Assembly (NCBI GenBank): GCA_963738405.1
Contig: CAVTWJ010000021.1
Coordinates: forward strand, 41,298-105,297
Source: a candidate division FCPU426 bacterium
GTDB lineage: Bacteria > Oederibacteriota > Muellerivitia > Muellerivitales > Muellerivitaceae
Direction: 5' to 3'
Length of the DNA stretch: 64,000 bases
Below the pieces are notes generated by a model. The model was not told the DNA's origin. It saw nothing but the letters and a program-made list of their open reading frames with translations, and made no database searches. Positions 39,265 to 44,607 of this stretch are shown here, one piece after another. How positions within the stretch are numbered: position 1 is the stretch's first letter; every line of letters starts with the position of its first letter. The position numbers were made by a program, and so were the translations under genes.

Positions 39265-40161
39265 TCATCGCCGGATAATAAGAATAACCGCCCCCACGAT
39301 CAAACCCGAGGCCAATATAACGGAGAGGGTTACGGGCTCCCCTGCCCAGGCCCATCCAAGAAACACCGCGATCACTGGATTGACGAAGGCATAGGCGGAA
39401 GCTAACGCCGGGGTGGCCCGATGAAGGACCCAGATATAAGACGTGAACCCCACCAAAGAACCGACGAGGCCCAGATAAGCCCAGGCCCACCATGAACCGG
39501 AAGAGATTTGAGCTAAATGAAACCCCGTCATCTCCCCAATCAAAATCGCTCCCAAAAGCTGAAAAACACCTCCAGCGATCATTTCCATTGAGGTGGCAAG
39601 AAAAACCGAATCCGGTAAGTTAGCTTGTCTGGCGTAGATGGAACCCATGGCCCAGCTAACCGGGGTTAAGATCAGAACGAGCATTCTCCAACCGACGGGT
39701 TTTTCCCCATAACCTGCAAACCCGGGTATCGTCAACAAAGCGACCCCGGTAAGGCCCAAAACGATACCCCACCAGATTGAAGTATTGGGTTTACTTTTTT
39801 TCCCCAAAACCATTCCACCAAAACCATCCAAAGGGGAACGGTCGCCACCAAAAGAGCCGCCACACCCGAGGGCACCTCACGCTCCGCCCAACTGACCCCG
39901 CCATTGGAGAAGAAGACCAGTAAAAAAACCCACAATGGCCGCGCTCTTCCATTGATTCCATGTGGGCCGAGATTCACCTTTCATTCGGTTAATCGCGTAG
40001 AGAAGAATTCCCGAGAAAAGAAATCGGCTTCCCGCCATGAGAAGGGGAGGGAAAGTCGAAACCGAAATGCGGATGGCCAGGTAGGTCGAACCCCAGACCA
40101 AGTAAACGCACCCAAGGGCCAGCCACACATCGGGAGTCAGGGAATGGTTTCGTCTAGGCAT
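39265..40161 (-). pseudogene. EamA/YedA-type DMT transporter with two compensating frameshifts
   Basis: VYLVWGSTYLAIR in the first frame; NGGVSWAE...SGVAALLVATVPLW in a shifted frame; YAFVNPVIAV back in the first frame. Switches occur at 7-nt homopolymers 39922-39928 and 39795-39801. Confidence 0.8.
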
Positions 40162-40215
40162 GAAGAGGTCCGTGAATTATGATGAAATCATATTGGTTAA
40201 GACTAGGGGCTCATT

Positions 40216-41199
40216 ATGACGGAAATGCAGCAAATCACCCCTCGGGCGAAAAAAAATATATTCCTAATACGTTTTATTTTGGCTTTGATTTTACTTTGTT
40301 TCGCGTTCTTTTATCTTCAACCACATCCCGAAAAAAAAGAATTAGTTCTTATTTATTCAGCCGTATTAATCGCTTCCTTTTTTCCCTTCTTTTCCATGAC
40401 CGAAGAACAATTTGAGAAGATCCGGTTTCAATATGTCGTGTTTTCCATGGACTTCGTGTTTCTTTTAAGTGGGCTTTTTCTCTTTGATCACTTTGAAACC
40501 AACCTGCTCATCATGCTGTTTTTCACTTTTTTCATTTCCGCCTTGAGCCAGTCGCCCGGCCGTAGCTTTGTCGTATCGATTCCTGTCATCGCCCTTTACG
40601 TTTACCTCAACTATATGAAAAGCGACGTATTTAACGTCATGGATCCGGTGCTCTTTCTTTCCTGCGCTTTACTTTTGGTTGTGGCCATCCATGCCGGTTA
40701 TCTCGCCTACCGAACGGTTCAACAAGAGAAAGAAATAATCGAATTGGCTAAGAAGGCAAATCTCTTAGCCGAAAAGGTACGAGAAGGGGATCAGGCCGCC
40801 TTGGAATACGCCTCCACCCTCAAAAATGTTCTGGACGCCTTGCCCGTCGGGGCCATCGCCGTTTCAACCCAACAAACGATTCTTTTCGTTAACAGCCGTG
40901 TTGGAAAAATATTGGATTTGAATCCCCGGTCCCTCATTAACCTTTACCTGCCCGAAAAGACCACTCCCTTAGGCGAAATTGGCGTCCTGATGGCCAAAGC
41001 CATCAAGGATCGGCATGAATTGAAAAGAGAATATCTGGATATCGAGTGGAAAGGCGTCCCCAAGAGGTTCCGATTGGACAGCGCCACCGGTGCCGCCGGA
41101 CCTAACGGAAAGGTTTGGGGAACCTTGTTTGTGCTCCAGGAAACCCATCGAACACCGGAAGAAAATCCCTCCGTACCTGATCCTTTGCTGAAAGACTGA
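40216..41199 (+). CDS. Membrane sensor-like protein (about 5 TMs, coiled coil, PAS; no output domain)
   Basis: Hydrophobic N-half; LKNVLDALPVGAIAV...ILFVN...GTLFVLQE PAS pattern; no His-kinase or GGDEF domain. Confidence 0.75.
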   Translation: MTEMQQITPRAKKNIFLIRFILALILLCFAFFYLQPHPEKKELVLIYSAVLIASFFPFFSMTEEQFEKIRFQYVVFSMDFVFLLSGLFLFDHFETNLLIMLFFTFFISALSQSPGRSFVVSIPVIALYVYLNYMKSDVFNVMDPVLFLSCALLLVVAIHAGYLAYRTVQQEKEIIELAKKANLLAEKVREGDQAALEYASTLKNVLDALPVGAIAVSTQQTILFVNSRVGKILDLNPRSLINLYLPEKTTPLGEIGVLMAKAIKDRHELKREYLDIEWKGVPKRFRLDSATGAAGPNGKVWGTLFVLQETHRTPEENPSVPDPLLKD

Positions 41200-41433
41200 A
41201 TCTTTGATTTTCCTCTCGCCTTGTGGTCCCCCCATTCCATCCCCTTAATTTCCTTACATTCCGGGACTTAGAAAGGTCTTTCGAGCGCCTCTCGCTTGTG
41301 GTGCGGCGATTCCCTGCGACCGAAAGCGGCAAAAAAATAAAAAAACTGTTTCAGGAGTATTCTCGCTTTAGTCCTTCATCCTTTTCCATTCCCGACTCAC
41401 AGACTCACGCCAAAATAAAAAAATAATATATTT

Positions 41434-41474
41434 TGTTACGTAACACTCGCATTTTTTTTGTTTCGTGTTAAAAT
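41434..41474 (+). promoter_or_regulatory. Palindromic operator plus extended -10 promoter of the micro-gene
   Basis: Perfect palindrome TGTTACGTAACA at 41434-41445; TG-T-TAAAAT at 41466-41474. Confidence 0.6.
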
Positions 41475-41503
41475 GTCGTAAATTCGCTAAGAAGGAGGGA
41501 CCC

Positions 41504-41554
41504 GTGGCGAAGAAAGTTGCTAAGAAGAAACCCGCGAAGAAAAAGAAGAAGTAA
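41504..41554 (+). CDS. 16-aa lysine-rich micropeptide MAKKVAKKKPAKKKKK
   Basis: AAGGAGG 5 nt before the GTG, TAA stop, promoter upstream and terminator downstream; below the ORF-track cutoff. Confidence 0.7.
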   Translation: MAKKVAKKKPAKKKKK

Positions 41555-41578
41555 ATTCTTCATGACTGTTTTGTTTGC

Positions 41579-41610
41579 AAGCCCGTCCCCATTCGGGGAC
41601 GGGCTTTTTT
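41579..41610 (+). terminator. Strong intrinsic terminator after the micro-gene
   Basis: AAGCCCGTCCCC-attc-GGGGACGGGCTT plus T-run. Confidence 0.92.
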
Positions 41611-41968
41611 CATTTTAAGCTCTAGTAAGAGCCCCAAAGTTTTTAGGCGACTCCTGAAATTCCCATTTTTAATCCCTCTAAAAAACATTTAGTGAAACCA
41701 AATCATAAAAAGTATCAATGCGTCGAATGGAAGATCAAATTGGAAAAATTTATTGAAATTTAATTTATGGGCGTTTATCAACGTCTTTAGTTATTCTTGA
41801 ATGCCTGGTTTATTGGGTTTTTAAACCGATTTTGGAACCGTGGACGATATCAAACATTTCCTTGGTAAATTCGCACCCTTCCCATTGAAAAATATTGATA
41901 GTCCTTGATTTATACGCTTTGAAAAAAAACATTACGTTCTTAAGCAACCGAATACAAAAATAAGAATA

Positions 41969-42697
41969 TCAACCAAACACTTTGTTCCAAAGAATCCGCA
42001 AGGGATCATAATACTTATCCACAACCCTCTCCTTAAGCGGAATAATGGCGTTGTCCGTAATGTGGATATCCTCGGGACAAACCTCAGTACAGCATTTGGT
42101 GATATTACATAGACCCAGACCATGTTGGTCCTTGAGAAGGCCGGTTCGGTCTAACTTATCGATAGGATGCATTTCGAGAGAGGCGATACGCGCGAAAAAG
42201 CGGGGACCCGCGAATTGACCCTGCATATTGTGTTCACGCAAAACATGACAAGTGTTTTGGCAGAGGAAGCATTCGATGCATTTTCGGAATTCCTGCACTC
42301 GATCCACGTCCCTTTGCTCCCATTGCCACACAGCCCCATCCTTCGGGGTAAAGGGCGGAATCTTTTTATTAACTTCATAGTTATAGGAAACGTCAGTTGC
42401 CAGATCTTTCATGAGCGGGAAGGCTTTCATCGGGGTGACGGTAATGGTTTGACCTTCCTCAAACTCGTTCAGGCGGGTCATGCACATCAGCCGAGGTTTT
42501 CCGTTCACTTCAGCCGAGCAGGAGCCGCATTTACCCGCCTTGCAATTCCAACGGCAGGCCAGGTCGGGGGTTTGAGTCGCTTGGAGGCGGTGGATGGCGT
42601 CCAACACCACCATCCCCTCCTCCACCTCCACATCGTAATCTTTAAGCTCCCCGCCTTCGGAGTTACCCCGGTAAACCTTCATGTGAACCATCGACAT
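41969..42697 (-). CDS. sdhB: Succinate dehydrogenase/fumarate reductase iron-sulfur subunit (Sdh1-like)
   Basis: CRWNCKAGKCGSC, CIECFLCQNTC, CNITKCCTEVCP. Confidence 0.93.
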   Translation of the reverse strand: MSMVHMKVYRGNSEGGELKDYDVEVEEGMVVLDAIHRLQATQTPDLACRWNCKAGKCGSCSAEVNGKPRLMCMTRLNEFEEGQTITVTPMKAFPLMKDLATDVSYNYEVNKKIPPFTPKDGAVWQWEQRDVDRVQEFRKCIECFLCQNTCHVLREHNMQGQFAGPRFFARIASLEMHPIDKLDRTGLLKDQHGLGLCNITKCCTEVCPEDIHITDNAIIPLKERVVDKYYDPLRILWNKVFG

Positions 42698-42723
42698 TCC
42701 GTCCTCCTCATTACATCTTTAGC

Positions 42724-44607
42724 TTAAGAAGCCGCGGGCGCTTCCCCGCGGATTTGTTTTAAGATTTCCGGTTTTAATAAATGCTCGTTCACCAATTCAT
42801 TTTCCAACTCGGAGGGAATTTGCGGCAGGGCTTCCTGGGCCACTTCCATGGTTCCGTTTTTATGCCGAACCACAATCCGCTTTTTAGCAAACTCTTTTGA
42901 GTAATCCGGGCAGTCGGTGCGCGTATGTCCTCCCCGGGATTCCTTCCGTTCTTTGGCCGCCCGGGTTATCGCCTCGCCAACAATGAGCATATTTCGAAGA
43001 TCAAGGGCCACGTGCCAGCCAGGGTTGAAAAGTCTATTTCCCTCCGCCGACACCTTTTGCAAACGATCCTGAAGGATCGCCAAGTCTTTTAAACCCTGGT
43101 CCAATAGTTTCTCTTCACGGTACATACCCGCTCCCTTTTCCATCGCCGTCTGCAGGTCGGCCAGAATGGCATAGGAAACTTCTCCCGGAGGGTTTGCAAA
43201 GGGCTGGTCCATTTGACGGTTGAGTTCGGAAAGGCTGTCCTCATTTATCTTAGGCGTTCCATTTTTCTTGGCGAATGCCGCGGCGTGTTCGCCGGCCAGT
43301 TTGCCGAATACCACCAAATCGGAAAGGGAGTTGCCCCCAAGGCGGTTGGAGCCGTGCATCCCGGCCGAGCATTCACCCGCTGCGAAAAGGCCCGGCACCG
43401 TGGACATTTGGGTTTCGGGGTCGACCTTGACCCCTCCCATCATGTAATGGCAGGTTGGGGCAATTTCCATGGGAACCTGAGTGATATCCACATCCGCCAA
43501 TTGTTTGAACTGGTGGTACATGGAGGGAAGTTTTTTCTTGATGTCCTCCGGACTGCGACGGGAGGCGATGTCGAGATAGACGCCGCCATGTTCGCTGCCG
43601 CGCCCCTCATGAATCTCGTTCCAAAGGGCCCGGGCTGTCACATCTCGGCTCATGAGTTCGGGAGGCTTTCGTTCCTTCACCGTTTCCTCTTTTTGTCCCT
43701 CCACCACGACCTTTTTAAACCAAGTGTTGGCTTCTTCTTCCGTATCGGCGTATTTTCCCTGGTACTTGGGCGGGATGTACTTGAACATAAACCTTTCGCC
43801 CTTGTTGTTTTTCAAAACCCCTCCCTCGCCGCGGACGCCTTCGGTGATCAAGAGTCCCCTTACGGAAGGAGGCCAAACCATTCCAGTGGGGTGAAACTGG
43901 ACATATTCCATGTCGGCTAATTCGGCTCCCGCCAGGTAAGCCAGGGCGAATCCGTCGCCGGTGCATTCCCAGGAGTTGGAATTTACCCGGTAAAGTTTGC
44001 CGATACCGCCAGTTGAAAGAATAATCGACTTGGCCTTAAAGAGAACGGGGCGGCCCGTTTCGCGGAAATAGCCGTAGGCTCCGGCGATACGGTCCCCGTC
44101 TTTGAGGAGGGCATAAATGGTGCATTCCATATGCACCTCAATGCCCGAATGCACTCCCTTGTCCTGAAGGGTACGAATGAGTTCCAACCCGGTCCGGTCG
44201 CCGACATGGGCGAGGCGCTTGTAGGTATGGCCCCCGAAATGGCGGACGTTGATGTTGCCCTTGCCGTCGGTAGTACGGTCAAACACCGCCCCCCATTTTT
44301 CCAGCTCCCTTACCCGGTCGGGTGCCTGTTGGGCGTGGATCTGGGCCATACGCCAGTGGTTGGCGAAGTTGCCGCCGAGAAGGGTGTCGCAAAAATGCTG
44401 GCGCCAGGAATCCCGGGAATCCACCGTGGCCAAAGCTGCGGCGATGCCGCCCTCGGCCATGACCGTGTGGGCCTTACCCAAAAGGGATTTGCAGACAAGC
44501 CCGGTTTTGCAACCCGCGGCAGAGGCCTCAATGGCGGCCCTTAATCCCGCTCCACCCGCTCCGATCACCAGCACGTCGTATTCGTATGATTGATAGCTGT
44601 CGCTCAT
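42724..44607 (-). CDS. sdhA: Succinate dehydrogenase/fumarate reductase flavoprotein subunit
   Basis: GAGGAG, AHTVMAEGG (covalent FAD His), QFHPTG, HYMMGG, HGSNRLGGNSL. Confidence 0.95.
   Translation of the reverse strand: MSDSYQSYEYDVLVIGAGGAGLRAAIEASAAGCKTGLVCKSLLGKAHTVMAEGGIAAALATVDSRDSWRQHFCDTLLGGNFANHWRMAQIHAQQAPDRVRELEKWGAVFDRTTDGKGNINVRHFGGHTYKRLAHVGDRTGLELIRTLQDKGVHSGIEVHMECTIYALLKDGDRIAGAYGYFRETGRPVLFKAKSIILSTGGIGKLYRVNSNSWECTGDGFALAYLAGAELADMEYVQFHPTGMVWPPSVRGLLITEGVRGEGGVLKNNKGERFMFKYIPPKYQGKYADTEEEANTWFKKVVVEGQKEETVKERKPPELMSRDVTARALWNEIHEGRGSEHGGVYLDIASRRSPEDIKKKLPSMYHQFKQLADVDITQVPMEIAPTCHYMMGGVKVDPETQMSTVPGLFAAGECSAGMHGSNRLGGNSLSDLVVFGKLAGEHAAAFAKKNGTPKINEDSLSELNRQMDQPFANPPGEVSYAILADLQTAMEKGAGMYREEKLLDQGLKDLAILQDRLQKVSAEGNRLFNPGWHVALDLRNMLIVGEAITRAAKERKESRGGHTRTDCPDYSKEFAKKRIVVRHKNGTMEVAQEALPQIPSELENELVNEHLLKPEILKQIRGEAPAAS

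Follow-up and report, generated by a model that had tools for sequence, protein, structure and literature searches.

In the genome of a candidate division FCPU426 bacterium (assembly GCA_963738405.1, designated G000), a 64,000-nt stretch of contig CAVTWJ010000021.1, hereafter called the window, contains a compact unit in which a promoter-like site, a Shine-Dalgarno (SD) sequence, a very short lysine-rich open reading frame (ORF) and an intrinsic terminator follow one another. The unit occupies a 769-bp intergenic gap at window positions 41200-41968, where GC content is 0.32-0.49 (200-nt windows). On its 5' side lies a 327-codon ORF without a Pfam match (40216-41199, plus strand), and on its 3' side a convergent gene for a succinate dehydrogenase/fumarate reductase iron-sulfur subunit, which ends at 41969, 415 nt away. 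The original prediction for this DNA had described a stand-alone transcription unit isolated in about 750 bp of non-coding sequence. Its extended -10 element, SD sequence, GTG-initiated ORF and terminator with a 12-bp stem can each be read directly at the positions given below, and the measured gap agrees with the isolation that had been claimed. The features of the unit are as follows.

41434-41445: perfect 12-bp palindrome TGTTACGTAACA, 5' of and abutting the weak -35-like hexamer.
41446-41451, plus strand: weak -35-like hexamer CTCGCA, 17 nt 5' of the -10 element, matching TTGACA at three of six positions; unchanged in three species of the genus.
41466-41474, plus strand: extended -10 element TGTTAAAAT (TGtTAAAAT, that is, TGn followed by TAAAAT); unchanged in G000, G001 and G003.
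41481-41503, plus strand: putative 5' untranslated region (UTR) with the SD sequence AAGGAGG at 41492-41498; AAATTCGCTAAGAAGGAGGG unchanged in the same three species.
41504-41554, plus strand: micro-ORF with a GTG start at 41504, 16 codons (MAKKVAKKKPAKKKKK) and a TAA stop at 41552-41554.
41555-41578, plus strand: 3' UTR (ATTCTTC...TGTTTTGTTTGC), kept within the genus only and not in other families.
41579-41612, plus strand: intrinsic terminator, with a stem at 41579-41606 of 12 pairs (nine of them G-C) closed by a 4-nt loop and followed by the T tract TTTTTTCATTTT.

The putative transcription start near 41481 was placed from the position of the -10 element, and a spacer of 5 nt separates the SD sequence from the GTG start. 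Seven AAG and three AAA codons encode the ten lysines, with no AAA-AAA pair among them. The TTCTTC of the 3' UTR is able to pair with GAAGAA at the end of the ORF, and the predicted fold of the whole transcript (-44.8 kcal/mol, z -3.46) is better than those of all 200 shuffled versions. This unit very probably represents a separately transcribed and translated gene for a functional oligolysine micropeptide. On sequence grounds, it is a member of a widespread, unannotated class of predicted peptides of 11-42 residues with the general form Met-Ala-(Lys/Ala/Val/Thr/Pro)n-Lys3-5.

Conservation within the genus and a second copy

Units of this kind are rare in the source genome. The whole 3.18-Mb assembly contains 20 short ORFs with at least 45% lysine, and only two of these combine at least 12 residues with a consensus SD sequence and a terminator, namely the window ORF and a paralog (MAKKVVKKKTAKK; contig C9, 344857-344898, minus strand; L022:5361-5399). 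The paralog starts with ATG, has the same AAGGAGG, a -10-like site (TGTTAAGGT) and a terminator of its own, and is flanked by unrelated genes encoding an MFS transporter and a PilZ protein. When the window locus is aligned with those of the sister species G001 and G003, near-identity begins just 5' of the palindrome and continues through the terminator, and neither flank can be aligned. Given the genome-wide rarity of such ORFs together with this conservation in two sisters whose flanks cannot be aligned, the unit, as judged from these comparisons, is a gene and not a chance ORF. Extra matches are also present in G001 and G003. The ORF had no match in G002, a further species of the genus whose genome is 86% complete.

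The differences among the three species bear on what is being conserved. Within the ORF they comprise four synonymous changes, two conservative replacements (Val to Ala and Pro to Thr) and one in-frame deletion of 3 nt; in the terminator stems of G003 and G001, both arms have changed and pairing is kept. Such a comparison had been proposed as a means of separating a peptide gene from a regulatory RNA, and it falls on the side of the peptide, with frame and lysine-rich product retained while the nucleotides diverge. As is typical of translated small proteins in general, the SD sequence, start, frame and stop persist through this divergence and constraint is visible at the level of codons.

The palindrome behaves differently. 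It is perfect, as had been reported, in G000; the sister species carry the imperfect versions TGTCATGTAACA and TGTCATGTAATA. The source genome contains a single exact copy (0.16 expected), and near-copies are rarer than expected, both with one mismatch (2 vs 5.8) and with two (25 vs 98). At the paralog on contig C9, no palindrome site was found. A role as the operator of a regulon was rejected, since the site is unique in the genome and near-copies fall below expectation; the earlier proposal that the gene is regulated, and the idea that a genome scan might reveal further sites, are not borne out. The palindrome may be an operator. Because it is imperfect in the sisters, unique, depleted in near-copies and absent at the paralog, it is treated here as part of the conserved promoter region and not as a sign of regulation.

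Distribution of the family and selection on its predicted product

A DNA-level search of 61 relatives returned short ORF matches in several genera, with the same type of unit encoding, for example, MAKKAKKAAKKKKK, MAAKKKVAKKKKK, MATKKKKKAAKKKKK and a 28-residue form. For a wider survey of the phylum, the pattern RTGGCNN{0,6}AARAARN{12,42}AARAARAARTRR was used, with Met-Ala, an early Lys-Lys and a final Lys-Lys-Lys-stop as its only fixed elements. There were 111 matches, spread over 68 of 99 genomes, compared with 47 matches for a reversed control pattern. After out-of-frame matches, internal stops, six ambiguous lysine-poor peptides and the tails of a dikinase had been dropped, 63 of the 111 matches were in-frame, stop-free, lysine-rich micro-ORFs, located in 55 genomes. 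Forms outside the pattern are carried by G027, G058 and G060, so that 58 of the 99 genomes and 15 of 23 families have at least one micro-gene.

These loci share a layout consisting of a ribosome-binding site, a Met-Ala start, 11-42 codons that are mostly for lysine or alanine, a stop and usually a terminator. Copy number ranges from one to at least three per genome, with two or three copies in several genomes. All 34 loci that were inspected have an SD-like site (GGAG, GAGG, AGGA or GGGG) within 20 nt of the start, 26 of them have a hairpin of -14 kcal/mol or better followed by a T run, and 16 reach a promoter-like score of at least 9, a level that 5.6% of windows drawn at random from these loci attain. 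In the loci of family f1 and in the paralog, TGnTAnnnT sites are located 38-48 nt 5' of the start. Between families, the sequences of UTRs and terminators are unrelated; what persists is the reading frame and the encoded product. The 42-residue member, MATKKK(VAKKK)n (L044), and a 22-residue member (L043) both lie between genes for an M16 peptidase and RNase J.

Several families (L015, L020, L036, L043, L044, L048 and L050) have a near-consensus promoter, TTGACA-N16-TATACT, 20-60 nt 5' of the start. At the same loci, a short 5' hairpin comes right after the promoter and is followed by ACACAT or ACACA; its stem sequence varies and its pairing is kept. This hairpin may stabilise the 5' end of the messenger RNA (mRNA).

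Beyond the phylum, the pattern GGAGN{4,10}RTGGCNN{18,48}AARAARAARAARTAR was scanned over approximately 186,000 species genomes and yielded at least 119 loci. Among the matches listed, 72 are in-frame with a lysine-rich middle, 36 are off-frame (mainly from AT-rich Firmicutes and Bacteroidota), eight are lysine-poor and three contain an internal stop. By record title, the 72 listed lysine-rich loci derive from one archaeon and from bacteria of at least 15 phyla. The bacterial taxa include Acidobacteriota, Gemmatimonadota, Planctomycetota, Verrucomicrobiota, Eisenbacteria, Methylomirabilota/Rokuibacteriota, Nitrospira, Binatia, Chloroflexota, Dormiibacterota, Bdellovibrionota, Anaeromyxobacter, Alpha-, Beta- and Gammaproteobacteria, Omnitrophota, Sumerlaeota and Brevinema, and one carrier is, by its record title, a cultured strain (Vineibacter terrae CC-CFT640). 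Prevalence was sampled by applying the phylum pattern to 50 non-seed genomes from each of three other phyla. Clear cases were found in 3 of 50 genomes of Acidobacteriota, 2-3 of 50 of Planctomycetota and 2-3 of 50 of Gemmatimonadota, compared with 54 of 98 non-seed genomes of the source phylum; the figures for the other phyla are lower bounds, as the pattern was built on the form found in the source phylum, and one additional match, in an unpublished genome, was left out of them. Prevalence outside that phylum thus looks low.

On viral contigs, the same wide-range pattern gave 21 lysine-rich loci among 119 listed. They are of a Lys/Asn/Asp/Gly type, with Asn, Asp and Gly taking the place of Ala. 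Some viral contigs (L201, L222, L231, L264 and L293) carry SD-led Lys/Asn micro-ORFs, such as MAKKKKKKGKKKNKKNKKKKK, which is present in two contigs and near-identical in a third.

Residue usage is informative about the level at which the family is constrained. At the positions that the wide-range pattern leaves free, the 72 listed loci encode K at 0.569, A at 0.279, T at 0.056, P at 0.029 and G at 0.021, followed by S (0.015), R (0.010), V (0.008), D (0.004), E (0.003) and N (0.001). Of the residues that a single mutation of a lysine codon can produce, most (Glu, Arg, Asn) are nearly absent, and alanine, which takes two steps, is the second commonest residue. In the phylum set, the composition is K 0.63, A 0.21 and V 0.06, in a table that includes 13 wrong residues and codon totals with one extra AAA, from a paralog reference in the wrong frame.

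Codon usage is likewise skewed. AAG makes up 0.61 of the lysine codons in the phylum micro-ORFs and 0.42 in neighbouring long ORFs, and AAA-AAA accounts for 0.105 of Lys-Lys pairs as against 0.456 in the neighbours, the longest A run being 8. The source genome as a whole slightly favours AAA (21,210 AAA vs 19,967 AAG), and its ribosomal-protein cluster prefers AAA (311 vs 227), with AAA-AAA at 20 of 51 Lys-Lys pairs; because of this preference in the ribosomal-protein cluster, the AAG bias differs from the one that highly expressed genes usually have. Homopolymeric A causes ribosomes to slide, and the bias fits a message that would be translated and in which slippery A runs are avoided. That AAA-AAA pairs are avoided, as first remarked for the window ORF, is hence a tendency of the whole family. 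It is not a rule, since the G001 ortholog contains one such pair. These frequencies show that selection acts on the encoded lysines and on their codons.

Proposed charge-driven binding and its alternatives

In the proposed mechanism, the extended -10 promoter and the consensus SD sequence would drive synthesis of the peptide, and the initiator methionine would probably be removed because alanine follows it. The product would have approximately 15 residues, a charge of approximately +10 and no fold of its own. It would bind polyanions (DNA, ribosomal RNA (rRNA) or other RNA, polyphosphate) through its charge and neutralise or condense them, in the manner of the Ala/Lys/Pro-rich tails of histone H1 and of H1-like proteins in bacteria. 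The window peptide would have an Ala, Val or Pro at intervals of three to five positions, a spacing shared with H1-type tails. Provided that the peptide is made, which is itself very probable, non-specific polyanion binding is the mode of action towards which the composition leans.

The nearest known counterparts are HC2/H1-like proteins such as chlamydial Hc2 (PF07382), Pseudomonas AlgP and the C-terminal tail of mycobacterial HupB, which resemble the family in composition, in short AKK/PAKK repeats and in variable repeat number. Charge-driven DNA binding is expected of both, for the family peptides as a prediction from composition. AlgP has been described as an H1-like protein at polyphosphate granules (PMC9239181). 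These counterparts range in length from 77 to several hundred residues or form the tails of folded domains, whereas the family consists of free peptides of 11-42 residues with their own promoter and terminator, and the HC2 profile (PF07382) gave no significant match for family members. Small basic and H1-like proteins are therefore already known; what would be new is a class of free oligolysine micro-genes that appears wide in reach and was not previously annotated. The most far-reaching version of this proposal remains tentative: many bacterial phyla, together with almost every lineage of the source phylum, might encode, in dedicated and strongly signalled micro-genes that annotation pipelines never call, abundant free oligolysine polycations that neutralise, compact or phase-separate nucleic acids or polyphosphate.

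Several considerations weigh against this interpretation. The sequences are of low complexity, which prevents a demonstration of shared ancestry across phyla, and the class may have arisen by convergence. Both search patterns fix Met-Ala and the C-terminal lysines, which for this reason are not independent findings; the phylum-pattern counts and the sampling of three further phyla rest on by-eye reading of matched strings; and loci from related genomes are not independent counts. Not all of the peptides are pure polycations, as family f5 contains acidic residues (MAKKKKGKDKEKDKKKK). Neighbouring genes, which differ between families, point to no particular target. The genome also has three HU-like genes and a spermidine-synthase-like gene, leaving no obvious gap for the peptide to fill. 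Finally, within the genus the UTRs are conserved as much as the ORF, which leaves room for an RNA-level role of this transcript.

The main rival, although unlikely, is that the product is a specific ribosomal or ribosome-associated protein that fills one rRNA pocket, like bTHX, bS22, bL37 or eL41. Among these, bTHX, bL37 and eL41 fit defined pockets and are rich in Arg, Lys and His without being of low complexity. In common with the family, the four proteins (approximately 24-33 residues) are strongly positive, are encoded by stand-alone genes and are often unannotated, and the descriptions of Borrelia bS22 and bL38 provide precedents for unannotated ribosomal proteins, tiny and basic in the case of bS22 (61% Lys+Arg), which was revealed by density in cryo-electron microscopy (PMC10618245). 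A consensus SD sequence, a promoter and a terminator are as expected for an abundant product, and some loci adjoin RNA-metabolism genes (RNase J and YicC). However, no examined locus lies in a ribosomal-protein operon, and no NCBIfam, Pfam or PDB-chain match to ribosomal proteins was obtained. According to the same account, Borrelia bS22 binds a defined RNA pocket and is almost invariant among Borrelia species (PMC10618245), whereas the family is of low complexity, spans 11-42 residues, differs in repeat number at syntenic loci (22 vs 42 residues) and has between one and at least three copies per genome. Because length and repeat number vary between close relatives, as in H1-like tails and unlike in proteins held in a fixed pocket, and copy number varies as well, charge-driven binding fits better than a fixed ribosomal pocket.

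An RNA-level explanation is improbable. The transcript would then be a non-coding or dual-function small RNA, with a functional AAR tract, U-rich 3' UTR and terminator, and the ORF would be incidental or would serve to stabilise the RNA. Such an RNA would account for 5' and 3' UTRs as conserved within the genus as the ORF, and for a fold better than that of every one of 200 shuffles (z -3.46). Hfq binds A-R-N repeats at its distal face, and (AAR)n matches such a repeat; nevertheless, Hfq (PF17209) was found in none of the 99 phylum genomes, 60 of which are at least 90% complete, and this argues against an Hfq-dependent RNA. Selection for a purine-rich or A-R-N motif is also disfavoured because AAY, AGR and AGY codons would be tolerated, yet they are rare (N 0.001, R 0.010 and S 0.015 vs K 0.569 among the listed wide-range loci). 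The only indel within the genus is of 3 nt, and between families it is the start, frame, stop and Lys/Ala content that persist, not the UTR and terminator sequences. A scan of 40000-43000 against Rfam gave nothing at the gathering threshold, the best score being 30.5 bits for PyrR (threshold 54).

Still less probable is a lysine- or translation-sensing leader peptide, for which the speed of the ribosome on lysine codons would set termination and downstream transcription and the peptide itself would be irrelevant. A run of one codon followed by a terminator is the classical attenuator layout, shared with trpL, hisL and thrL, in which a short ORF rich in one residue has a terminator close behind it. 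Among 32 loci with a downstream ORF, 18 have that ORF on the same strand, as a leader would require; at the other 14 it is convergent, as is the gene 415 nt away at the window locus, and no relationship links the various downstream genes. Attenuators have a regulated downstream gene and an antiterminator, whereas here the layout persists as neighbours change. In the one locus that was folded, no structure competes with the 12-bp terminator, which is kept in both the minimum-free-energy and the centroid folds, and the 3' end of the ORF pairs with the 3' UTR, so that no antiterminator is predicted. The avoidance of A runs further suggests that accurate synthesis of the product is important.

It is very improbable that the gene encodes a cationic peptide with toxic or antimicrobial activity, whether as a type I toxin or as a defence peptide that is exported. 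Overproduced oligolysine peptides can be toxic or act on membranes, but the family (K 0.63, A 0.21, V 0.06) lacks a signal peptide and any hydrophobic segment, no gene for an exporter, immunity protein or maturation enzyme recurs among the neighbours, and no antisense partner turned up, although no search was aimed at one.

If free polycationic peptides of this kind are made, they would be a bacterial gene product that is both widespread and conserved and is missing from protein databases (none of nine members looked up), and digestion with trypsin or Lys-C would destroy them before proteomic detection. An encoded polycation would bear on the charge balance and compaction of nucleoids, ribosomes and polyphosphate granules, especially in poorly known soil phyla, and, if real, would correspond, at the level of protein, to polyamines or protamines. 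A role as a substitute for polyamines is neither supported nor excluded: the spermidine-synthase-like gene and the three HU-like genes are present, and AdoMet_dc was not found in the source genome (90.7% complete). The family also represents a natural test of how long lysine runs might be translated without slippage of the ribosome or polymerase. Vineibacter terrae CC-CFT640, cultured according to its record title, makes the question accessible at the bench.

Database standing, neighbouring genes and related sequences

The original prediction held that standard gene callers would miss this type of ORF. In line with this, an exact look-up of nine family peptides (20-42 residues) in a collection of 15 billion proteins found none. 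Prodigal has a minimum gene length of 90 nt, which would exclude all but the longest members. Searches with the 28- and 20-residue members gave no NCBIfam family, and no Pfam family at an E-value limit of 0.01; in the latter case a match may be masked by low-complexity filtering in HMMER. Against PDB, the 42-residue member had only a chance match to a sigma factor (E 0.94) and the 28-residue member had none; a search of 5.8 billion protein clusters with the 42-residue member collected 13 candidates, none of them scored.

In the ESM Atlas, the 42-residue member adjoins unnamed clusters of "hypothetical proteins" of 28-37 residues, which suggests that some longer relatives have been called by gene finders and left unnamed. 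The nearest named cluster carries HC2 (PF07382) on 21% of its members (score 0.90), a lead in feature space only. A literature search found no description of free oligolysine micro-genes. The passages of PMC5521070 and PMC10117765 that concern lysine or basic terms hold nothing relevant, and the supplements of these papers might list such ORFs.

Neighbouring genes differ between families: a cyclophilin gene in one, genes for an M16 peptidase with RNase J in another, for an FHA-GAF protein with FtsK in a third and for a flavodiiron-like protein in a fourth. A fixed gene partner was rejected for this reason. In the variant of family f5 (L023, L024 and L025), the micro-gene lies 3' of the FHA-GAF protein gene in all three genomes and directly 5' of ftsK in two of them. 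The gene upstream of the unit is co-directional at 28 of 32 loci, compared with 18 of 32 for the downstream gene, a bias that may be overstated as the loci are related. A possible reading of this orientation is that the unit stays clear of divergent promoter regions; another is that it is partly read from the upstream gene. At the window locus, the distance between the 327-codon ORF and the micro-gene is constant (304-305 nt) in G000, G001 and G003, the three members of the genus in which the micro-gene is present. On the other side, between the terminator and the 3' end of the iron-sulfur subunit gene, lie approximately 355 bp of 32-35% GC (41614-41968) that lack conservation even within the genus and yielded neither an ORF nor an RNA family.

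Lysine-rich stretches also occur within longer proteins. In the source genome, 29 lysine-rich windows in longer frames were uninformative. Three loci matched by the phylum pattern (L039, L041 and L045) were rejected as micro-genes, as they are lysine-rich C-terminal tails of pyruvate phosphate dikinase; a match on contig C12 of G070 was also dropped as a dikinase tail, an assignment drawn only from a matched string identical to that of L039. In G070, G072 and G076, this enzyme ends in a Lys/Ala/Val-rich tail of 20-60 residues (...KKGAKKVAKKAVKKVAKKKK), so that a composition like that of the micropeptides is fused to an enzyme. The loci concerned are the following.

L039, 1-1548, minus strand: pyruvate phosphate dikinase with lysine-rich tail.
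L041, 1-1557, minus strand: pyruvate phosphate dikinase with lysine-rich tail.
L045, 1-1542, minus strand: pyruvate phosphate dikinase with lysine-rich tail.

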